64,000 bases of DNA from Chitinophagaceae bacterium (lineage in GTDB: Bacteria > Bacteroidota > Bacteroidia > Chitinophagales > Chitinophagaceae), in assembly GCA_051954695.1 (NCBI GenBank), contig JBQCHL010000025.1, positions 30,852 to 94,851 of the forward strand, written 5' to 3'. This document shows positions 1 through 14,454 of this stretch, piece by piece; the first letter of the stretch is position 1, and each line of letters opens with the position of its first letter. Both the position numbers and the translations under genes were made by a program. The notes beneath the pieces were generated by a model. The model was not told the DNA's origin and made no database searches. It worked only from the letters and a program-made list of their open reading frames with translations.

Positions 1-1176
1 TACTCCCGGCCGGTTTTGCGGCTTTCTGATTTTAAGGGGAAAGCGCTGCTTATTAGTGTCTGGGCACATAATTGTCTTCCTTGTATAAAAGCGTTTCCTC
101 TTCTGGACAGTATGCAGGAAAAATTTAAAGACCGTTTGCAGATAATTCTGCTTAATCATGAGACAGCAGATTCAACAAGAAGGTTTTTCTTGCGAAAGAA
201 GAAATTGCCTCAGCCAAAAGTCGTTCCCATGATAACGGGTGAAACTGTATTGTCAAAAAAACTGAATACGTTAGGTGAACTTTGGCTTGACTCTGCAAGA
301 GTTTTCCACTTTGGATCTGAAATTGCAAATATCACAGAAGAAAATATAAACAAGTTTCTTGCAGGCATCCCGCTTACATTCAAAAAGCGTGTTAAGCTGG
401 CGGAGTTTGATACTTCCATTCCATTGATAACAGAAGGCGGTGGGCGGTGGATAGACAGTATCGGCTCTTATGCTTATTTTTTTCATCATCCGTTTGAGAT
501 CCCTCAGTTGAACAAAACAGAGCCGGATATAGGTACCCCCGCTAATGAACTTCGATTTACAAATATTTCTGTTATGGAACTGTATCGTCTGGCCTTCAGT
601 GAAAAGCACAAATATAATTTCACACAGGCTACTATAGAAGTACGTGTAAAGGATTCCAGTTTGTTTTTTCCTCCGAAAGGAGATAGCGAAAGCCGGGTAA
701 ACTGGTATAATGAGCATCTTTATACCTACGATTCGCGGGTGCCTTTGCCATTTGCAAACAGGATTTATCAGTTGATGCAGCAAAGCCTGCCTTTTCAGTT
801 TGGACCAAAAGCTGAAGTACAGTTACTGGAAAGAAATTGTTGGGTGCTGGAAGCATTAGACAGCACGAAATTTATTTCAAAAAAAGGGTCTCCTTACAAA
901 AAAGCCGGCTTAAGGATTGATGAATCGGATTCGGTTTCACAATTCCGGCACTGGCCATCCATGAGTATTTTCACGACTATTAAAACTTATTGTCAAGAAT
1001 TCTCATCTCAACCTTTGATTAACGGCTTACATTACTCTGGTCCGATGAATTTCTCTATGCATTTGGGGATAGTAGTTTCTGGGAAAATGGAAAGATTTCA
1101 GGAGGCATTGAAAGAGAATGGCCTGATACTCCGGCAGCAAAAAATGAAAATGCCTGTGCTGGTAATACAGGATTAA
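1..1176 (+). CDS. Thioredoxin-fold (TlpA/redoxin, CLPC) protein with DUF3738-like C-terminal region; 5'-truncated by window edge
   Basis: Frame open from base 1 (YSRPVLRLSDFKGKALLISVWAHNCLPC); WAxxCxxC motif; colinear with paralog 12219-13511; C-terminus ALKENGL..K.K.PVLVI resembles DUF3738/TIGR03435 end. Confidence 0.8.
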   Translation, partial: YSRPVLRLSDFKGKALLISVWAHNCLPCIKAFPLLDSMQEKFKDRLQIILLNHETADSTRRFFLRKKKLPQPKVVPMITGETVLSKKLNTLGELWLDSARVFHFGSEIANITEENINKFLAGIPLTFKKRVKLAEFDTSIPLITEGGGRWIDSIGSYAYFFHHPFEIPQLNKTEPDIGTPANELRFTNISVMELYRLAFSEKHKYNFTQATIEVRVKDSSLFFPPKGDSESRVNWYNEHLYTYDSRVPLPFANRIYQLMQQSLPFQFGPKAEVQLLERNCWVLEALDSTKFISKKGSPYKKAGLRIDESDSVSQFRHWPSMSIFTTIKTYCQEFSSQPLINGLHYSGPMNFSMHLGIVVSGKMERFQEALKENGLILRQQKMKMPVLVIQD

Positions 1177-1182
1177 TGGCAA

Positions 1183-1219
1183 GACTAGAGTGACGGCTAT
1201 CATTAGGGTCACTCTAGTC
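1183..1219. terminator. 12-bp inverted repeat between convergent genes (probable bidirectional terminator)
   Basis: GACTAGAGTGAC (1183-1194) / GTCACTCTAGTC (1208-1219); overlaps peptide stop codon; no strong U-tract. Confidence 0.55.
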
Positions 1220-1537
1220 ATAAGTCCAGGGAGTTTCATGCGTTCCGATCCGATCACTATGCCAATCGTCATTTATTACACCAGTACCAGGATCGGTTTG
1301 ATTCTTTAAGCTCCAAATAGGATATCCACGGCGGCAGTCTGGCCCATCTATAACATGACAGGTGCCACTCGTAAAATCATTTCGCCCCCCATAATCCAGG
1401 TAGGCTCCTGTTCCCGTTAATGCATTGTATTCAAACCAATACAGGAACTCAGTTGAGTCCACCTTTTTCTGGCTTGTAAAAGCGCTTAGGGATATAGCCA
1501 TAATCAAGGCTACTATTCCCCAAAAATACTTTCTCAT
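1214..1537 (-). CDS. Small secreted two-Cys peptide/protein 1 (DUF6520-like), signal peptide + CX7C
   Basis: MRKY + hydrophobic stretch + SLSAFT; C-HVIDGPD-C; about half identical to paralog 13568-13876 by manual alignment. Confidence 0.8.
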   Translation of the reverse strand: MRKYFWGIVALIMAISLSAFTSQKKVDSTEFLYWFEYNALTGTGAYLDYGGRNDFTSGTCHVIDGPDCRRGYPIWSLKNQTDPGTGVINDDWHSDRIGTHETPWTYD

Positions 1538-1563
1538 ACATTTGATTTTATTTGATTAAATGC

Positions 1564-1634
1564 TGCCTGCTTTTTTATACAGGGTTCGGCTGATCCTGTG
1601 CTTACTAATCCCGGTCTACAAGTAGCATTGCAAT
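1564..1634 (-). ncRNA. Candidate structured cis-regulatory RNA, copy 1 (pseudoknot/switch-like)
   Basis: Minus-strand AUUGCAAU..ACAGG-AUCAGCCGAAC-CCUGU-AUAAAAAA-GCAGGCA ending 27 nt before peptide ATG; near-identical core at 13906-13942. Confidence 0.55.
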
Positions 1635-1671
1635 AACAGACTGTACTCTAAAATTGTATTAGATACTTCGC

Positions 1672-1705
1672 AAAAAGGTTCGAGGAATAAAAAATACGTT
1701 TGCAA
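1672..1705 (-). promoter_or_regulatory. Motif shared with region upstream of MauE (putative common promoter/operator)
   Basis: AAAAAGGTTCG..AAAAAATACGTTTGCAA vs AAAAAGGTTCG..AAAAAATAAGTTCGCGA at 14436-14470. Confidence 0.3.
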
Positions 1706-1979
1706 GAAGGTTGTTTAAACAGAGATAGCCAGTCAGGGAGCCTTCTTTTTTCTTCACACGAACGTTCTATTGATCGATGTCAGCTATATTCTGTAAATAG
1801 ATTCTTTTAATGGAAGGCCTTCAATATCGATTCGCGCCTCAAACGCTATATTAGTTTGCAGGAAATACTGACCCTGCTTAGGCAACTCATTTTACCATAA
1901 ATAATTTAATTACAATGTATTACATTAAAATAAGGAAATATAAATAAGAAAAATGTTTTTACATACGTAGTTAACTACA

Positions 1980-5580: not shown

Positions 5581-6132
5581 TTGTCGCTCCAAAAACCTCA
5601 TACAAACCTGGGCCAGGGTTCTAAACCTGGAGAAGAAGTGGCTTATGATCATCTGTTTCGCGAGTATTTCCCTGCGCTTTGTTATTTCGCACGAAGGTTC
5701 TTAAAACAGAGGTATGATCCGGAAGACCTGGTCATGGACTGCTTTGCCAAGCTTTGGGAAAAAAGGGTCTCTTTGCAGCATCCTGAAACCGTTAAGACCT
5801 TTCTATATACAACGGTACGCAATGCCTGCATAGATCTGCTGCGAAAAAAGAATATTCCTGTCATTCCTGTTGCGTCACACGAAGAATCTCTACATGATGA
5901 GGAAGCCAACTTCATTAGCTTTCTGATAGAAGCAGAAGTATTCCGCGAAATATTCTCAGCAGCCGAGCACCTGCCTCAGCAAATAAAAAAAGTGTTCCAG
6001 CTCTATTTTGTGGAAGGAAAAAATGAGCGGGAGATCAGCGAGGAACTCAAGACCTCTTATCATACCGTGCGAAACCAACGACAGCGAGCAGTGGCGCTCT
6101 TAAAAGAAAAACTACAGATCCCTAAAAAATAA
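5581..6132 (+). CDS. ECF RNA polymerase sigma-70 factor
   Basis: LFREYFPALCYFA, EDLVMDCFAKLW, FLYTTVRNACIDLLR (region 2); LP...KKVFQL...EG....EISEEL (region 4); TTG start, in-frame stop just upstream. Confidence 0.92.
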   Translation: MSLQKPHTNLGQGSKPGEEVAYDHLFREYFPALCYFARRFLKQRYDPEDLVMDCFAKLWEKRVSLQHPETVKTFLYTTVRNACIDLLRKKNIPVIPVASHEESLHDEEANFISFLIEAEVFREIFSAAEHLPQQIKKVFQLYFVEGKNEREISEELKTSYHTVRNQRQRAVALLKEKLQIPKK

Positions 6133-6203
6133 AAATCAAACGGCTAGTCAACATTTACACTCCTCCCGTATTTTAATACAAGGCAATTAGCTACCTTACC
6201 AAC

Positions 6204-7400
6204 ATGGAAAAAGGAAACGAACCAGATAATATTAAAAAGGCTTACCGGACAGCCTATTTGATTGCTGGGTTTCTTAAGGAATCACTGACAGAACCAGAGA
6301 AGCAGGAATTAAATGCCTGGGTCAATGAAAACGAGCATAACAAAAAGCTTTTTGCTGAACTGACCAACCAGGAAAAGCTGCAGGAAAAGCTGAAAGAATA
6401 TAATCAGGCAGGTACAGAGCAATACCTGGAGGAAAGCAAACAGGAGTTGAGCTTCAATAATCGCAGGAAAGTAAGACGGTTATGGGCATATGGTGTAGCT
6501 GCTTCCTTTATCGCATTTGTAATCATAATCTGGGTAGCAAAACCATTCACTGAAAAGCAAGGGCCTATTGTCCGCGAGGAAACAGATACACTTATCCATC
6601 AAAGCGGGCAATTGGAAAAGGAAAAGGTGGTACTGGATATGGGAAAGGGGAAGAAAATCGTGCTTGGTGAAACTAAAACTGATTCGGTCATTGATAAAGG
6701 ACTACTTATCAAAGAAGGAAAAGAGCTGGTTTATCAAACCGAATACAGCGAAAATGAGTTTCATACACTGACTGTACCACATAAAAGTTTTTATCATTTA
6801 CGATTACCCGACGGAACAAAAGTGTATTTGAATGCGTCATCATCTATCCGTTTCCCAACCCATTTTCCTGAAAAAGAAAGACGGGTATATATAAGCGGTG
6901 AAGCCTATTTTGAAGTAGCGCATAATTCTGCTCAGCCATTCCGCGTGGAAGCTGCCATTAAAGATAGAGTTCCCATGGTCGTGGAAGCTGTTGGTACTGC
7001 TTTTAATGTTAATACCTACACGGATGAGCCTTTCCCTTCAGCCACACTGGTAGAAGGAAAAATAAATGTATCATTGTCTGATAAAGAAATGGTGCGGCTT
7101 GTTCCCAACCAGCAGGCGCGTGTAACCAGTAAAGGGCTTAAAGTAGGGGAGGGAAAAGTAGATGTGATCACAGCCTGGACAAAAAATGAATTCAATTTTG
7201 ATGATACACCTTTAAGCGAAGTGCTGCGGCAACTTGCCCGCTGGTATAATGTAGAAATTATCCAAAACGTGCCCGACCAGTCGTTTAAAGCTGGCCCCTT
7301 TTCACGAAATCAACCCCTGGAATACTGGTTGAAGATCCTTTCCAAAACAGAAGAATTCACTTACCGCATCGACGGACGTCGAGTTACCATTACTAAGTAG
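6204..7400 (+). CDS. fecR: FecR family anti-sigma/sensor protein
   Basis: Single TM; LRLPDGTKVYLNASSSIRFP, RRVYISGEAYFEVAHN, VGTAFNV, LSEVLRQLARWYNV. Confidence 0.92.
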   Translation: MEKGNEPDNIKKAYRTAYLIAGFLKESLTEPEKQELNAWVNENEHNKKLFAELTNQEKLQEKLKEYNQAGTEQYLEESKQELSFNNRRKVRRLWAYGVAASFIAFVIIIWVAKPFTEKQGPIVREETDTLIHQSGQLEKEKVVLDMGKGKKIVLGETKTDSVIDKGLLIKEGKELVYQTEYSENEFHTLTVPHKSFYHLRLPDGTKVYLNASSSIRFPTHFPEKERRVYISGEAYFEVAHNSAQPFRVEAAIKDRVPMVVEAVGTAFNVNTYTDEPFPSATLVEGKINVSLSDKEMVRLVPNQQARVTSKGLKVGEGKVDVITAWTKNEFNFDDTPLSEVLRQLARWYNVEIIQNVPDQSFKAGPFSRNQPLEYWLKILSKTEEFTYRIDGRRVTITK

Positions 7401-7414
7401 GAACGAAACAAATC

Positions 7415-7470
7415 AAGGTCAGAAACGGCCATTCATTGCAGGCGATCATCCGCCCTGCCTGGCCAGCCTT
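7415..7470 (+). other. Extended imperfect stem-loop in FecR-SusC intergenic region
   Basis: AAGG..GGCCA..GCAGGCG-ATCATC-CGCCCTGC-C-TGGCC..CCTT nested complementarity; no U-tract. Confidence 0.45.
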
Positions 7471-7521
7471 TGCCCTTTTCTCGGACCGAATCGTATTGTG
7501 TAACTCAAACTGTTCCAAACT

Positions 7522-10500
7522 ATGCAACTGCTTAAGTATGGTCGCGGCCTTATTCTCCGCTGCGGCTTCCTGATCATTTTGTCTATCCCGTTTAATCTTC
7601 GGGGTTTTACTCAAACAGTCTCTCTCTCTTTTGAAAATGCTGCGTTAGAAAAAGTATTGAAAGAACTGGAAAAACAGGTGCCTCAACGATTTGTTTATAC
7701 ACGGGCAATGATGGACGAATCAAAACCGGTTTCTGTTCATTTAAACAAAGTAACATTAGATTCTGCGCTGCAGAAATGTTTCGACAATCAACCTTTAGTT
7801 TATTCGAAAGACCAGCGTTTTATTATTTTAAAAAGGATTTTATCTCCTTCTGAAAAACAAGCACCTGCCATTGTACTAACAGGCAGGATAACCGATGAGA
7901 ACACCCAACCCGCACAAGGCGTAACAGTAAGATCAAAACTAAGCGGACAATCCTCTTCTTCCAATAAAAACGGGGAATTCAGCTTACCGGTTGAACCATC
8001 AGGCGATGTACTGTATATAAGTGGGGCTGAAATACAATCACAGGAGATCCCATTGCAAGGCCAACGCTATATCGCGATAAGCGTAACCCACAAAATCGGA
8101 AGCCTTGATGAAACTGTTGTTATTGGCTATGGTAAAACCACCCGCCGGATGAACACCGGAAGCGTTGGTAAAATCAACCAGGCTACTATTGCGCAACAAC
8201 CGGTCGGCAATGCATTGAATGCATTGCAGGGCCGTGTAGCCGGGCTTGAAATAACACAAACCAACGGTCTTCCGGGTTCTTCGGTGAGAGTACAGGTACG
8301 TGGCAGGAATTCTATTGCACAGGGCTCTCAGCCTCTGTTTATTATTGATGGCGTTCCGCTTGCAGCAGGTAAGGAAGTGCTGAATCAACTGATCTCTGCT
8401 TATGGCAACCCAGACACTCCCCTGGAAGTCTCGGGCGGAGGGGGCATTAGCCCGCTTATAAGCCTGAATCCAGCAGATATTGAAAGTATCGAAGTGTTGA
8501 AAGACGCTGATGCTACTGCTATCTATGGAAGCCGCGGTGCCAATGGGGTAATTCTCATTACAACCCGCAAAGGGCAGAGCGGAAAACTACAAACCAATTT
8601 CTCTATGAAAAGCGGCTGGAGCCGTATTACGCGGAGTATGGATTTCCTGAATACTCCTCAATACCTTGCTATGCGGCATGAAGGGTTTGCACAGGATAAT
8701 GCCATTCCCACCGTTGCAACTGCCCCTGATCTGTTGTTGTGGGATACCACAAGGTATACTGATTTTAAAAAGCTGTTGATTGGTGGTACAGCCCTTTTCA
8801 ATGATGTGCAGACTTCACTATCGGGCGGTAATAACTTAACACAATTCCTGTTTGGAATGGCCTATCACAGGGAAACCACTGTATTCCCCGGAGATAAGTC
8901 CCTGCAACGGGCCTCTGCAAATCTGAACCTGCAGCATCGCTCTGCAGATAGCCGGTTCACCGCTAATATGTCTGTCAACTACGCGTTCACTAAAAACAAT
9001 AATGCGGTTCAGGATCTCACTTCAAGCATTAGCCTACCTCCTAATACGCCCCCGCTTCTCAATGCGGATGGCAAACTCAACTGGCAGGAGGGCGGTGCAG
9101 TATTTAACAACCCTCTTTCTTACACAGCATCGGAGTATAATGCGAACACTGATAATCTGATCAGTCATCTTCAGTTAGGGTATAAAATTTTACCGGGCTT
9201 TTCCCTTAGAGTGAATGCCGGCTATAACCTTACTGTTGCCAAAGAAGAACGTATAATACCGATTGTTGCTCAAAACCCTACTAATAATCCACGGGGCGTA
9301 TCAAGCTTTGCCAGCCGTATGCTTAGAAGCTGGATTATAGAGCCACAAATGGAATACAGCAATCAATTTGCCTGGGGAAGGATTACAGCGCTCGTTGGAG
9401 GCACTTTACAATTAAGCAGTAATGATCAGGCTTCACAACAAGCTTCTGGATTTACCAGTGATGCCTTGCTTCGGTCAATTAATCAGGCTACCATGCTTAG
9501 CGCAAATAATAGCTATACACAATATCGTTACTCAGCAATATTCGGTCGTATTCAATACAACTGGCAGGATGAATACCTCCTAAGCTTTACTGGCAGGCGA
9601 GATGGTTCTTCCCGCTTTGGGCCGGACAATCGGTTTGCACAATTCGGTTCAGTTGGTGCTGCATGGATTTTTTCCAACACATTTAAAAACAAACTTCCCA
9701 TGCTTAGTTTTGGGAAGCTTCGTGCCAGCTATGGTAGCACAGGTAATGACCAAATAACCGATTATCAATACTTACCAACCTGGAGCGGCGCTTTCAATCC
9801 TTATCAGGGTGTTGCAGGGTTAATACCTACACGCTTATTTAATCCTAACCATCGTTGGGAGGTAAACCGGAAACTGGAAGCAGCGATCGAGCTTGGCCTG
9901 TTTAAAGACCGGTTGTTTATCTCGGCTGCGTATTTCCGTAACCGGAGTAGCAATCAACTGGTAGAATATCCATTGCCCAGCCAGACAGGGTTTTTCAGCG
10001 TTACAGAAAACCTTCAGGCTTTGGTACAAAACACAGGAGTTGAAATTGAATTACGCTCTACCAATATAAGTGCCGGAGATTTTAGCTGGCAGACCTATGG
10101 TAATATCACTATTCCCCGTAATAAGCTGGTTTCCTTTCCGGGCTTTGCCTATTCAAGCTATGCACGCAACTATGCGGTCGGTGAGCCGTTGAACCTGATC
10201 AAACGCTACCGATATCTTGGCGTTGATCCTTCAACTGGTCTTTATGAATTTGAAGATGTAAATAAAGATGGAGTGTTTTCTTCAAAAGATGATTTCCAGG
10301 TATTGGGTAAGCTGGATCCTGATTTTTACGGTGGCCTGGGAAATGATTTTCAGTATAAAGGGTTTTCCTGTACGATATTCTTTGAATTCCGCCATCAAAT
10401 TGGGATTAATTACTTATCAGACCTGGCTTCCAAAATACCCGGCCGCAATTTAAATCAACCGGTGAGCGTATTGGAGCGGTGGCAGCAACCTGGTGATATT

Positions 10501-10803
10501 GCGCCTACACAAAGATTTACTGCGATCAATGCAGCGCCTGTGGCTATAGCAGCCTCCCGAATTGCTACTTCGAACGCTATGTATAGTGACGCCTCTTTCC
10601 TGCGCCTGAAAAACATTGCAGTTTCCTATACGCTGCCAGCGAGCTGGCAAAAAAAGATAGGCTGCAGTAATGCACGTATCTATACCCTTGCTCAAAATGT
10701 GTTGACCATCACCGGCTATCGCGGTGCTGATCCCGAAACACAGCGCATTTATAAACTTCCTCCATTGAAAACACTGGTGATCGGTGTGGACTTAACCTTT
10801 TAA
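7522..10803 (+). CDS. SusC/RagA family TonB-dependent outer-membrane transporter with N-terminal signalling (STN-like) domain
   Basis: LDETVVIGYG, ALQGRVAG, IRGRNS-like plug, DIESIEVLKDADATAIYGSRGANGVILITT, DGSSRFG, C-terminal F. Confidence 0.95.
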   Translation: MQLLKYGRGLILRCGFLIILSIPFNLRGFTQTVSLSFENAALEKVLKELEKQVPQRFVYTRAMMDESKPVSVHLNKVTLDSALQKCFDNQPLVYSKDQRFIILKRILSPSEKQAPAIVLTGRITDENTQPAQGVTVRSKLSGQSSSSNKNGEFSLPVEPSGDVLYISGAEIQSQEIPLQGQRYIAISVTHKIGSLDETVVIGYGKTTRRMNTGSVGKINQATIAQQPVGNALNALQGRVAGLEITQTNGLPGSSVRVQVRGRNSIAQGSQPLFIIDGVPLAAGKEVLNQLISAYGNPDTPLEVSGGGGISPLISLNPADIESIEVLKDADATAIYGSRGANGVILITTRKGQSGKLQTNFSMKSGWSRITRSMDFLNTPQYLAMRHEGFAQDNAIPTVATAPDLLLWDTTRYTDFKKLLIGGTALFNDVQTSLSGGNNLTQFLFGMAYHRETTVFPGDKSLQRASANLNLQHRSADSRFTANMSVNYAFTKNNNAVQDLTSSISLPPNTPPLLNADGKLNWQEGGAVFNNPLSYTASEYNANTDNLISHLQLGYKILPGFSLRVNAGYNLTVAKEERIIPIVAQNPTNNPRGVSSFASRMLRSWIIEPQMEYSNQFAWGRITALVGGTLQLSSNDQASQQASGFTSDALLRSINQATMLSANNSYTQYRYSAIFGRIQYNWQDEYLLSFTGRRDGSSRFGPDNRFAQFGSVGAAWIFSNTFKNKLPMLSFGKLRASYGSTGNDQITDYQYLPTWSGAFNPYQGVAGLIPTRLFNPNHRWEVNRKLEAAIELGLFKDRLFISAAYFRNRSSNQLVEYPLPSQTGFFSVTENLQALVQNTGVEIELRSTNISAGDFSWQTYGNITIPRNKLVSFPGFAYSSYARNYAVGEPLNLIKRYRYLGVDPSTGLYEFEDVNKDGVFSSKDDFQVLGKLDPDFYGGLGNDFQYKGFSCTIFFEFRHQIGINYLSDLASKIPGRNLNQPVSVLERWQQPGDIAPTQRFTAINAAPVAIAASRIATSNAMYSDASFLRLKNIAVSYTLPASWQKKIGCSNARIYTLAQNVLTITGYRGADPETQRIYKLPPLKTLVIGVDLTF

Positions 10804-10814
10804 AATTTACTATT

Positions 10815-12197
10815 ATGTTTATCTTTTTATACAGATCATATTCTGCATTGTTATTATGTTCTCTACTCCTGTTTTCTTCCTGTCAGAAGTTTACTGAAGT
10901 ACCTGCACCTCAAAATCAGATTTTGAGTGATGCTGTGTTCTCCAGTGATGCAACAGCCAATTCTGCAGTAGCCGGATTATACAGTCAGTTCATGCGTCCC
11001 CATATGTATTTTGCAAATTGCGGTCTATCAATTTATCCTGCATTAAGTGCTGATGAATTATACAATACAGCCCCGAGTGTAGATTTCGACGCAGTCAGGA
11101 TTAATGATATTTCATCCGGCCAGATCGATGTATTGTCATGGTTGTGGAATCCGGGATTCGAGGCTATTTATCAATGTAATGCTTTGTTGGAAGGGTTTAG
11201 TAAGCCCAATGGACTTACGCCTTCTGTTCAGCAGCAACTACGTGGTGAAGCCTTATTTGTAAGAGCATTTTCATATTTCTACCTGGTTAATCTTTTTGGC
11301 GACCTGCCCCTGCCATTGTCAACCGACTACCACATGAATGCAGTATTGCCCAGAACATCAGTTACCAAAGTATACAAACAGATAATAGATGATCTGCAGA
11401 CTGCGGTGGAAAGCCTACCGGTACAACAGATCAATTCAACCAGGACCCGGCCAAACAAGTGGGCTGCACAGACACTTTTGGCAAGGGTCTATTTATACCT
11501 CGGCCGTTGGGGGGATGCAGTTACTACAGCTTCTTCCATTATTAATAATAATGATTTTGTTTTAGGAACAAATCTTGAATCAGTATTCCTGGCAGGGAGT
11601 AAGGAAACTATTTGGCAGTTATCTCCTTCCGGAACCACAGCCTATACATCATTAGGGGTTCAGTTCATTCCCTCCAATGCGAGCATAAATCCTTCTTTCA
11701 GTACAACAGAAGACTTATGGCAATCATTTGAAACAGGTGATAAACGGGCTAATGCCTGGTTAAAAACAGTGGTAATAGGTGGAGAAACCTATCACTATCC
11801 TTTTAAATATAAACAAAGAGCAGGAACGGCCAGTACGGAATATCATATTGTATTCCGTCTCGCAGAGCCATATCTTATCCGTGCAGAAGCATTAGCCATG
11901 CTGCAACAACCTGAACCGGCATTGGATGATCTGAATAGGATACATACGCGCGCTGGATTAGCTCCCCTGGTTGCCCTTACTGATGAATCCTTATTACGCG
12001 CTATAGAAAAAGAGCGTTTTGTTGAATTATTTACCGAATGGGGACATCGTTGGTTTGATCTTAAACGAACAGGTCGTTCCGATGCTGTTCTTGGACCATT
12101 GAAAGGTACAAGCTGGCAGTCAACTGATGTATTATACCCTGTACCGCTGGACGAGTTGCAACGGAATGTATACCTACAGCAAAACCCTGGCTATTAA
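10815..12197 (+). CDS. SusD/RagB family nutrient-binding lipoprotein
   Basis: Lipobox FSSC; GEALFVRAFSYFYLVNLFGDLP; RLAEPYLIRAEA; ERFVELFTEWGHRWFDLKR; QNPGY end. Confidence 0.95.
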   Translation: MFIFLYRSYSALLLCSLLLFSSCQKFTEVPAPQNQILSDAVFSSDATANSAVAGLYSQFMRPHMYFANCGLSIYPALSADELYNTAPSVDFDAVRINDISSGQIDVLSWLWNPGFEAIYQCNALLEGFSKPNGLTPSVQQQLRGEALFVRAFSYFYLVNLFGDLPLPLSTDYHMNAVLPRTSVTKVYKQIIDDLQTAVESLPVQQINSTRTRPNKWAAQTLLARVYLYLGRWGDAVTTASSIINNNDFVLGTNLESVFLAGSKETIWQLSPSGTTAYTSLGVQFIPSNASINPSFSTTEDLWQSFETGDKRANAWLKTVVIGGETYHYPFKYKQRAGTASTEYHIVFRLAEPYLIRAEALAMLQQPEPALDDLNRIHTRAGLAPLVALTDESLLRAIEKERFVELFTEWGHRWFDLKRTGRSDAVLGPLKGTSWQSTDVLYPVPLDELQRNVYLQQNPGY

Positions 12198-12218
12198 ATC
12201 ATTTTTTAAACCACAGAT

Positions 12219-13511
12219 ATGTATTTAGTGTTTAAACGTGCAGTTCTTTTATTGATTGCTTCAATTGGGTTTATAACCGCAAAATCTCAAAGTATTTCTG
12301 TTGGCGAAACCTGGCCAAATATCCAGTTTAAAGAAGTATTAAACTACCATAAGCCGACTTTGGAGTTTTCAGATTTCCCTGGAAAAGTCTTCATAATTGA
12401 TTTATGGGCCCATGGCTGCAAGCCATGCGTAGAAGCTTTTCCTCACCTTGATAGTTTGCAGGCACAATTTAAAGACCAGTTACAGATTATTATGATCAAC
12501 CCTGAAGGAAAGGATTCAACAATCAGGTATTTTAAAAGAAAGAATAAAATACATGTGCCTAAAAATATCCCGATGGTTACTGGAGAAAAGGCATTATTTG
12601 ATCGATTGAAGACTTTGGGCTATCTCTGGCTGGATTCCTCATGGACGCTCCGGTATGCTGGAGGAAATGATCATACTACAGCAGTTAATATCCAAAAATT
12701 TTTGTCCAATATTCCTTTAACTTTTAAACAGAATCGCATAGTTGAGGACCTAAATATTGACGTGCCTCTAATTTCCGAAGGGGAGGGTCGTTGGCTGGAT
12801 AGTGTAAATTTTTATTCATACCTGTTTCATCATGATTTTCACATGCCCTACCTACGCAGTTTTATACCCGGAAAAAATGGCCCTCCCAACAGGCTTTGTC
12901 TGCCGAACATACGGGTATTAAGTTTATACCGTGCCGCCTTTAATAATGGTTCACTTGAAACTTACACTTCGATGCCTATAGATATTCATGTAAAAGATTC
13001 AAGCTTGTTTTTTCCGCCTACCGGCGAAAAGTTTGATGAAAACTGGGCAATAAATCATCAGTATACCTATGATGTCAAAGTACCGATGTCCAGGGCCAGT
13101 GATATTTATCCGATCATGCAACGCGATCTGGCCCTTCACTTCGGTCTCAAAGCTGAAGTCAAGCTACTTGAAAAAGACTGTTGGGTGTTGGAACCCTTAG
13201 ACCGCCGGTTGTTTGTTTCTACAAGCGGAAAAGCATCTCCCACAACCGGAAAGCCGCAAGTCGATTCTATTAATCGTTTCAGTCATTGGCCATCAGATCG
13301 GCTTTGGTTTACACTAAAACAATACTTCACGCTTTTCTCAGCCCTTCCATTAGTTAACCGGCTATCTTATTCGGGACCAGTGAATTTTGAGATTCATCAG
13401 AATGTTTTGATCTCTGGCAATATGGATTTGTTCAAAGAAGCACTAAAAAAGAATGGTATATCTATTAGGAAGACTAAAGCAAAGATTCCTGTTCTTGTAA
13501 TTACGGATTAA
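12219..13511 (+). CDS. Exported thioredoxin-fold (TlpA/redoxin, CKPC) protein with DUF3738-like C-terminal region
   Basis: Signal peptide; DLWAHGCKPC; colinear paralog of 1-1176. Confidence 0.85.
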   Translation: MYLVFKRAVLLLIASIGFITAKSQSISVGETWPNIQFKEVLNYHKPTLEFSDFPGKVFIIDLWAHGCKPCVEAFPHLDSLQAQFKDQLQIIMINPEGKDSTIRYFKRKNKIHVPKNIPMVTGEKALFDRLKTLGYLWLDSSWTLRYAGGNDHTTAVNIQKFLSNIPLTFKQNRIVEDLNIDVPLISEGEGRWLDSVNFYSYLFHHDFHMPYLRSFIPGKNGPPNRLCLPNIRVLSLYRAAFNNGSLETYTSMPIDIHVKDSSLFFPPTGEKFDENWAINHQYTYDVKVPMSRASDIYPIMQRDLALHFGLKAEVKLLEKDCWVLEPLDRRLFVSTSGKASPTTGKPQVDSINRFSHWPSDRLWFTLKQYFTLFSALPLVNRLSYSGPVNFEIHQNVLISGNMDLFKEALKKNGISIRKTKAKIPVLVITD

Positions 13512-13567: not shown

Positions 13568-13876
13568 TCAAGGTTTTCTGATCTGGTCATCATGGAAATT
13601 GTCATCAATCACCCCTTGTTCCGGATCGCCATTCACCAAATCCTCCAAAGAATATCCTCGACGGCAATCATCTCCCTCCATTTGATTACAGATGGCTGTA
13701 ACAAATAGGCTCCGCTCCCCATAATCCAAATAGGTACCTGCCCCTGATGATATATTATACTCAAACCAATACAACGGTGCAGACTTTACAGCTTTGTCAG
13801 ATGATTTAGCACTTGTAAACGCACTCAAAGACACCGCTGCAATCACAGCGAATAATCCCAATAAATACTTTCTCAT
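13568..13876 (-). CDS. Small secreted two-Cys peptide/protein 2 (DUF6520-like), signal peptide + CX7C
   Basis: MRKY..SLSAFT; LYWFEYN; YLDYG; C-NQMEGDD-CRRGY; paralog of 1214-1537. Confidence 0.8.
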   Translation of the reverse strand: MRKYLLGLFAVIAAVSLSAFTSAKSSDKAVKSAPLYWFEYNISSGAGTYLDYGERSLFVTAICNQMEGDDCRRGYSLEDLVNGDPEQGVIDDNFHDDQIRKP

Positions 13877-13905: not shown

Positions 13906-13981
13906 TGCCTACTTTTTTATACAGGTATTCGGCTATTCCTGCCGGCCAGGTTTGCGCTTGCCTGACCAGGTTCTATTGCAA
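13906..13981 (-). ncRNA. Candidate structured cis-regulatory RNA, copy 2 (overlaps MauE 3' end)
   Basis: UUGCAAUA, 9-bp hairpin CUGGUCAGG/CCUGGCCGG, GCAGG-AAUAGCCGAAUA-CCUGU-AUAAAAAA-GUAGGCA ending 30 nt before peptide ATG. Confidence 0.55.
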
Positions 13982-14408
13982 CAGTTCTTTTATATTTTCT
14001 TTCCATATACCAACCAAAAAACGCCAGAAAGGTCATTATGATATTCAACACAAGATGCTGCTGCCAGCTAAGCACTTCTATTACACCGCCACAGCCACAA
14101 GGCAGTTTCTTCGCAAATAGTAACATACCACCGATATAACCTGTAAAACAAAAAAGCAGGATGCCGGAGAACAATAATGCCTTCTCACGAAACCAGAGAA
14201 TCAACAAACCAACAGCCAGTAACAACTCAATTGCTGGTATACCCCAGGCCAGTTGCCCGCTGAATGGCCGCAACCAGGGCGAAGACCTTAATGCTATATG
14301 GAACCGGTGCAATTGCATTGCTTTACTCAATGCTGTATAAACGAACAACGCAATAAGTACAGCAGCAATAATGGAAACAAGGAGGTGAATAGAGTATTTT
14401 CGCTTCAT
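13917..14408 (-). CDS. MauE/DoxX family redox-associated membrane protein
   Basis: Several TM helices; LFVYTALSK, ELLLAVGLL, LPCGCGG (CxC) and SWQQHL..N motifs; alternative start 14423. Confidence 0.88.
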   Translation of the reverse strand: MKRKYSIHLLVSIIAAVLIALFVYTALSKAMQLHRFHIALRSSPWLRPFSGQLAWGIPAIELLLAVGLLILWFREKALLFSGILLFCFTGYIGGMLLFAKKLPCGCGGVIEVLSWQQHLVLNIIMTFLAFFGWYMERKYKRTVAIEPGQASANLAGRNSRIPV

Positions 14409-14454
14409 AGAATAAAGGTTCACCTGCGATCCAAGAAAAAGGTTCGCCTATAAA

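Follow-up and report, generated by a model that had tools for sequence, protein, structure and literature searches.

A DUF805b-related pseudoknotted leader RNA upstream of secreted-peptide genes in Chitinophagaceae

A short structured-RNA candidate that had been flagged in front of a peptide gene of a Chitinophagaceae bacterium is confirmed here as a real, small pseudoknotted leader RNA preceding a secreted-peptide gene. The flagged element (copy 1) lies on the minus strand of the 64,000-nt stretch of DNA that was analysed, referred to below as the window; a second copy in the window and a third elsewhere in the genome also precede secreted-peptide genes (Table 1). Our main reading, to which we assign a probability of roughly 0.55, is that copy 1 is a divergent H-type pseudoknot leader of the DUF805b class, probably decaying, that tunes its downstream gene in cis. 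RNAs of the DUF805b kind are already catalogued; what is new is the covariation of the pseudoknot, its association with MauE and DUF6520, and a subtype that has been missed.

Table 1. Positions of the three copies of the element and of adjoining genes (window coordinates unless prefixed C34)
Feature	Position	Strand	Remarks
Copy 1 palindrome remnant UUAUUGCAAU	1627..1636	minus	degenerate form of the 12-nt UUAUUGCAAUAA
Copy 1 upstream block AUUGCAAU	1634-1627	minus	followed by a 27-nt spacer before P1
Copy 1 pseudoknot core	1565..1599	minus	35 nt; read from sequence
Copy 1 P1 5' strand ACAGG	1599-1595	minus
Copy 1 L1 AUCA		minus	between P1 5' strand and P2 5' strand
Copy 1 P2 5' strand GCC	1590-1588	minus
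Copy 1 L2 GAAC		minus	between GCC and P1 3' strand
Copy 1 P1 3' strand CCUGU	1583-1579	minus
Copy 1 L3 AUAAAAAAGCA	1578-1568	minus
Copy 1 P2 3' strand GGC	1567-1565	minus	followed by A 1564 and 26 nt
Peptide gene 1 start codon AUG	1537-1535	minus	27 nt past the last P2 base
Peptide gene 1	1214..1537	minus	107 aa; signal peptide; DUF6520-like
Copy 2 upstream extension	13942..13983	minus
Copy 2 imperfect palindrome UGUUGCAAUAG	about 13983-13972	minus
Copy 2 hairpin insert CCUGGUCAGG-loop-CCUGGCCGG	13970-13942	minus	present in the MFE fold
Copy 2 core GCAGG AAUA GCC GAAUA CCUGU AUAAAAAAGUA GGC	13907..13942	minus
MauE-family membrane protein gene	13917..14423	minus	168 aa; PF07291, E 6e-26
MauE stop UAA	13919-13917	minus	in copy 2 L3, directly after P1 3' strand
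Peptide gene 2	13568..13876	minus	102 aa; signal peptide; DUF6520-like (E 0.0037, below Pfam cut-off)
Copy 3	C34:37103-37139		at a MauE gene end; 22 nt before the third peptide paralog

Copies in the genome and covariation of the fold

The segments of copy 1 are read on the minus strand just as the preliminary description had set them out. Copy 1 consists of non-coding DNA and copy 2 overlaps the end of the MauE gene, the last eight codons and stop of which (GRNSRIPV*) make up the 5' two-thirds of the copy 2 pseudoknot. The recurrence of the core at 13906-13942 with diverged flanks, as previously described, is seen at 13907-13942 on the minus strand: four substitutions and one 1-nt indel separate the core of copy 2 from that of copy 1, and the DNA further upstream is unrelated. 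Each of the three genomic cores is followed, 22-30 nt further on, by a paralogous gene for a DUF6520-like secreted peptide; peptides 1 and 2 are 52% identical, and relatives of peptide 1 match DUF6520. A core covariance model finds exactly three strong matches in the 4.9-Mb genome (E 7e-15, 2.5e-13 and 4e-11; the next is 0.03), and all three stand before the peptide paralogs, which excludes a chance repeat. Under covariance model R1, copy 2 scores 57.5 bits and copy 1, which is within the training set of this model, scores 50.2 bits (E 4e-11). The surroundings of the two window copies (window 1-1176 and 5581-13511) are also alike in that each peptide gene is convergent with a gene for a paralogous protein of about 430 aa, which carries a long C-terminal domain in addition to a TlpA/ResA-like thioredoxin domain. 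Module B is in addition situated downstream of an ECF sigma, FecR, SusC and SusD set.

The fold was examined in a comparison set of about 190 homologous copies, including 100 further fetched copies and 42 from other families of the phylum. It comprises a 5-bp P1, a 4-nt L1 and a GCC that forms P2 with a GGC further downstream; a near-invariant loop, GAA-N-A, lies between the GCC and the 3' strand of P1, and an A-rich L3, which passes back alongside P1, ends in AGUA in 180 of 181 copies. Both helices covary in three alignments, which bears out the H-type pseudoknot proposed earlier for copy 1, with P1 as ACAGG/CCUGU and P2 as GCC/GGC across an A-rich linker. In alignment A4 (139 distinct sequences), 93.9% of cells are paired and there are 39 two-sided changes; the model-based alignment A5 (101 sequences) gives 95.2% and 36, and A7, a phylum set of 43 sequences outside the set from which the structure was derived, gives 97.5% and 28. 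The covariation score was reached by none of 500 shuffles in any of the three. The covariation in homologs on which the preliminary description had made its reading depend is thus present throughout.

The variety of pairs is considerable in both helices. P1 variants in A7 include AGG/CCU, GGG/CCC, GGA/UCC, CGG/CCG, UGG/CCA and AGC/GCU. P2 is 99.3% paired in A4, with UA (ten times), AU (four times) and UA (once) as well as G-U intermediates, and among 181 copies its strands are GCC/GGC in 144, GCU/AGC in 11, ACC/GGU in six and UCC/GGA in one, with the G-U intermediates GCU/GGC in 11 and GCC/GGU in five. As P2 was left out of the search model throughout, its covariation support is not circular, and the G-U pairs in P1 and P2 fix the sense strand. 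Thermodynamic folding alone gave no significant signal (z -0.25 and -1.25), so that support for the structure rests on sequence comparison.

Relationship to DUF805b and the condition of copy 1

The family to which these copies can be linked is the DUF805b RNA of Rfam (RF02914; type Cis-reg; clan CL00115, together with DUF805; consensus AAGGcGGAAgCCGAAAAgCCUuAAaAGAGUAGGcA), with a gathering score of 35.6 bits. The motif reportedly stems from Weinberg et al. 2017, the main text of which makes no mention of DUF805, and our literature search for a functional study of DUF805b found none, the RNA being mentioned only in a benchmarking paper. The comparison with Rfam that had been suggested at the outset led to RF02914 through relatives of copy 1 and not through copy 1 itself: no Rfam family matched in the window at gathering thresholds, and copy 1 gave no match to RF02914 at E<=10. 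Copy 2 scores 21.6 bits and the MauE-linked relatives L030, L031 and L033 score 24.9 bits, both below the gathering score; copy 3, at 45.5 bits, and the copies from other families, at 37-52 bits, lie above it. With the RF02914 model itself, 68 of 121 genomes of the family score above the cut-off, with up to 21 copies. R1, which was built from MauE-linked copies, also retrieves loci scoring 37-52 bits with RF02914, and since the window copies and members above the threshold are found with one and the same model, homology to DUF805b is indicated by continuity. Judged by this continuity, copy 1 is a divergent, sub-threshold member of the DUF805b family.

In Bacteroidota the window element and DUF805b alike stand in front of protein-coding genes and in the same orientation as these, and the two resemble each other in hairpin, GCCGAA loop and AGUAGGC tail. 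A graded series connects copies 1 and 2 with the RF02914 consensus, in which the hairpin loop reads ..gCCGAAAA and the 3' tail AGAGUAGGcA. At these sites copy 2 has GCCGAAUA and AAGUAGGCA, with two differences typical of a subtype, and copy 1 has GCCGAAC, in which an A is missing, and AAGCAGGCA, in which a U has become C. The element differs from DUF805b in having GAA(C/U)A instead of GAAAA in L2, A/U instead of G as the base before AGUA, and a longer A-rich L3; it is also embedded in the 3' end of MauE, has a palindrome or a variable hairpin in front of it, and is tied to DUF6520-like genes. The Rfam model shows only a 4-bp hairpin for DUF805b, whereas the covariation described above supports a pseudoknot.

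Two loop positions separate the subtype. Among the fetched copies, an A as fourth base of L2 occurs with G before AGUA in 123 of 137 (A5 columns 26 and 43), and C/U at the first position occurs with A/U at the second in 42 of 43. These positions covary without Watson-Crick logic, and the covariation may reflect a tertiary contact, or else a lineage effect and hence a subtype marker. The C/U type is the MauE-linked Chitinophagaceae subtype, which holds the window copies and fails the Rfam threshold, so that current annotation undercounts the family. The same genome contains further DUF805b/DUF805-like leaders (C11:157901-157939, C11:158809-158847, C11:154157-154188 and C5:163743-163775), which precede genes for a lipoprotein, a TlpA-like thioredoxin, an SRPBCC-like protein and a membrane protein; the first of these leaders scores 37.6 bits with RF02914, above the cut-off.

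Copy 1 is the least typical of the approximately 190 copies. It alone of 193 copies lacks the A before the P1 3' strand, which is present in 179 of 181, and has AGCA in place of AGUA. No remnant of MauE was found upstream of copy 1 beyond about 70 nt. Its ortholog in a genome of the same genus (G686) has kept the two bases, is likewise without MauE and has a mismatch in P2 (GCC/AGC). In a second ortholog, again from the same genus (L209, G395:C74; counterpart of window 1214-1760), a deletion has taken the motif, the ATG and the signal peptide, leaving the peptide-1 ortholog of G395 as a 5'-truncated pseudogene. The loss of two near-invariant sites together with the damaged orthologs suggests that copy 1 is probably weakened or decaying, and we read its module as one that has lost MauE and come under relaxed selection.

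The strongest competitor of the main reading carries this one step further and holds that copy 1 is a dead relic of the partial duplication or deletion that removed MauE, inert for peptide gene 1. In addition to the two outlying positions and the damaged orthologs, it can draw on the failure of copy 1 to match DUF805b, on the degenerate state of the palindrome and hairpin upstream, and on the nested minimum free energy (MFE) structure of copy 1, in which a hairpin foreign to the family is preferred. However, copy 1 has kept both P1 and P2, stands at a normal distance from the ATG and is followed by an intact 107-aa ORF, and conservation remains higher in its core than in the flanks. We therefore regard an inert relic as a serious but unlikely outcome and retain the reading of copy 1 as a divergent leader that may still act on its gene.

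Gene context and possible mode of action

The core model matches 278 of 401 genomes of the family; these represent 127 of 151 genera, and a single genome has as many as 10 copies. The element always has the orientation of the gene downstream of it, typically 20-30 nt upstream of the ATG within the family and about 12-30 nt outside it. In line with the expectation of the preliminary description that the motif would recur in front of homologous peptide genes, it was found 20-30 nt before the ATG in 19 of 21 loci of other genomes that encode relatives of the peptide. Within the family almost all downstream genes encode small proteins of the MKKYLLG...SAFT type, and Pfam DUF6520, on which a literature search returned nothing, matches 23 of 59 sampled downstream proteins. 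Outside the family the downstream genes are mixed (beta-carbonic anhydrase, DUF308, TM2, RidA, SnoaL, bacteriocin-like peptides and other small proteins), and so heterogeneous a set offers no hint of a ligand.

MauE lies directly upstream in 43 of the 50 loci with long flanks in the MauE-linked Chitinophagaceae group, and the MauE ORF enters the motif in 35 of 48 long-flank loci, with its stop right behind P1 in 23 and elsewhere or in another frame in 12. In one locus (L007) the MauE frame crosses the pseudoknot and the spacer entirely and joins the peptide gene in frame, with no stop over 359 nt, a possible MauE-peptide fusion ORF. A single leader in another locus (L119; 151-195 and 233-277) contains two pseudoknots separated by about 38 nt, and modules of the MauE/peptide type are repeated 0.5-1.7 kb apart in L164 (970-1012 and 1501-1543), G009, G313, G314, G318 and G347. 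A locus with a MauE gene, pseudoknot and DUF6520-like gene typical of Chitinophagaceae is also carried by a sequence labelled as a Citrobacter freundii MAG (L013; QFQQ01000019.1), a label that is probably a binning or labelling error.

Our best guess is that the element is a post-transcriptional leader that acts on translation or mRNA stability. The folded pseudoknot would act in cis, after transcription, on the gene 12-30 nt downstream: with its invariant loops recognised by a ligand or protein, it would adjust translation initiation and perhaps also the survival of the mRNA. Bacteroidota largely do without Shine-Dalgarno-based initiation, which makes a pseudoknot 12-30 nt before the start codon a plausible handle for tuning the translation of individual genes. 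In the Chitinophagaceae subtype, fused to the 3' end of MauE, the last MauE codons and the stop are no more than RNA read as protein, and ribosomes terminating inside the element would have to unfold it, coupling the two genes. A ribosome that has stopped at the UAA behind P1 occupies the remainder of the element, so that folding and MauE termination would be mutually exclusive, which again suggests coupling. The search for an expression platform (a terminator, an alternative pairing, or complementarity between L3 and the start region) found none, including no terminator between motif and ATG. Pairing of the L3 A-tract with the U-rich region before the AUG was considered and rejected, with averages of -1.35 kcal/mol for own pairs and -1.37 kcal/mol for cross pairs.

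The same facts could be accommodated by a leader that senses nothing. A constitutive compact fold, at or near a 5' end or at an RNase boundary after MauE, might protect the peptide mRNA from 5'-end-dependent decay or aid ribosome loading in place of a Shine-Dalgarno sequence, so that the peptide would be made in large excess over MauE. This is compatible with the lack of an expression platform or alternative pairing, the diversity of the downstream genes, the short and fairly fixed distance to the ATG, and the position at the MauE-peptide junction in the 35 loci mentioned above. It also agrees with three loci (L196, L199 and L201) in which the motif is preceded, at a distance of 12-15 nt, by sigma-54-like promoters (TGGCAC/T-N5-TTGA) and would come to lie at the 5' end of the mRNA predicted from them; these promoters precede a shared family of exported proteins of about 220-250 aa. 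A mere stabiliser would, however, have no need of unpaired GAA-N-A and AGUA that are nearly invariant across the phylum beside stems that vary. Constant unpaired loops with varying stems are what a specific tertiary fold or a binding pocket typically shows, and in our judgement invariant unpaired bases next to stems that vary freely point to a specific ligand or protein partner more than to a plain stabiliser. We consider a purely structural leader improbable, if somewhat less so than the more specific proposal that follows.

According to that proposal, the DUF805b pseudoknots form a genuine class of riboswitches, with a fold like that of preQ1-I and a small-molecule or ion ligand, and control small exported and membrane proteins across the phylum; we hold it to be speculative. 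The SAM-II/SAM-V, guanidine-III and fluoride riboswitches are compact pseudoknots with invariant loops and covarying stems that act in cis near a start codon. The element resembles them in its compact pseudoknot, invariant loop nucleotides and covarying stems, but its gene context gives no hint of those ligands, and none of the corresponding Rfam models matched copy 1 at E<=10. Were the DUF805b RNAs riboswitches, the MauE-embedded subtype, in which A...G is replaced by C/U...A/U, could be a specificity variant coupling MauE termination to the peptide.

The findings are of interest for several reasons. DUF805b is an orphan but an abundant one, present in most Chitinophagaceae genera and in other families of Bacteroidota. 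Its dominant partner here, DUF6520-like secreted peptides that usually stand behind MauE, offers a concrete regulon to assay, and the layout is unusual in that an RNA fold dictates the C-terminal codons and the stop codon of a protein.

Less probable readings and neighbouring elements

A mutually exclusive hairpin had been proposed in the preliminary description, in which the 3' GCAGG displaces the 5' ACAGG from CCUGU, and the element could accordingly be a two-state switch in which the 3' G(C/U)AGG and the 5' strand compete. The alternative pairing is possible in 93.6% of cells and is found in the nested MFE structures of copies 1 and 2. The comparison does not uphold it: there is no two-sided change, 471 of 500 shuffles reach the covariation score, and every compensated change in P1 or P2 breaks the alternative helix. 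The hairpin is strongest in copy 1 because of the U-to-C change unique to that copy. We think such a switch quite unlikely.

The constraint on the element had also been placed at the nucleotide level, a view supported by the compensatory changes in P1 and P2 and by the retention of the core in the non-coding copy 1. On the comparative evidence it is at the RNA level, and at neither the protein nor the DNA level, that the element is shown to be under constraint. A promoter, an operator or another DNA-level site serving the peptide gene would fit the location of the element directly upstream of genes, the spacing of its GCCGAA and GUAGGC blocks about two helical turns apart, and a perfect 12-nt palindrome that directly abuts P1 in 41 of 151 loci compared with 2.4% of shuffles. 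Against this, the bases of P1 and P2 change freely as long as complementarity is kept, the G-U intermediates are strand-specific, and the TAnnTTTG box of Bacteroidota was not found at a fixed distance from the motif, all of which makes a DNA site very improbable.

Least probable of all, in our estimation hardly tenable, is that the conservation reflects the C-terminal peptide of MauE or, counted jointly with it, that the element is a preQ1-I riboswitch. MauE tails do read R-x-S-R-x-P-V, but coding constraint was rejected, as the arginine codons show no variation, frames and stop positions vary between loci, GCUGAA variants put a TGA in frame, conservation extends past the stop and copy 1 is non-coding.

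The likeness to preQ1-I is one of fold, as the preliminary description had put it: preQ1-I topology without the pocket residues. Both are H-type pseudoknots (here of about 34-37 nt) with a 5-bp P1, an A-rich L3 (AUAAAAAA) and a short P2 in which loop nucleotides pair with the 3' tail, and each lies immediately before the regulated ORF; the AUAAAAAA tail, the topology and the 5-bp P1 recall the B. subtilis preQ1-I aptamer in particular. RF00522 was moreover the only riboswitch model to register with copy 1, at 14.4 bits (E 2.5) against a cut-off of 39. In preQ1-I the specificity cytosine stands immediately 5' of the P1 3' strand (UC or AC), and a conserved U at the start of L1 contacts the ligand (PMC11625349). 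The element has A instead of the specificity C, never C in any copy, and copy 1 has lost the base altogether; the first column of L1 in 101 copies holds A in 27, C in 32, G in 42 and U in none. P2 is GCC/GGC, and no genes for queuosine synthesis or transport were found among the downstream genes. The score and the absence of the specificity C and the L1 U led us to reject identity with preQ1-I, and the likeness may be convergent.

The region upstream of P1 contains further symmetrical sequences. The abutting 12-nt palindrome, which stands ahead of many MauE-linked copies, is mostly UUAUUGCAAUAA, with the symmetric variants UUAUCGCGAUAA, UUAUCAUGAUAA, UUGUUGCAACAA and UUAUAGCUAUAA (L005-L058 and others). 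Its centre is also palindromic, which a simple RNA hairpin does not require, and the MauE amino acids that it encodes vary; an RNA dimerisation site and a DNA-level site are both possibilities. When TTGCA of the palindrome was considered as the -12 element of a sigma-54 promoter in the MauE-linked loci, no TGGCAC was found at the right spacing. In copy 1, the 27 nt between the palindrome remnant and P1 are the decayed counterpart of the hairpin insert of copy 2, and at the place of this insert other loci have different, variable GC-rich hairpins.

A second conserved element, AAAGUUU-n-GCUUUUU(A/G)AGAUUAUAAAAGC, occurs between the pseudoknot and the ATG in some leaders. It is not a terminator, since no U-tract follows it, and it matches no Rfam family. 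It consists of a 6-bp stem with a conserved loop and was observed in eight loci (L041, L063, L078, L102, L124, L146, L147 and L173).
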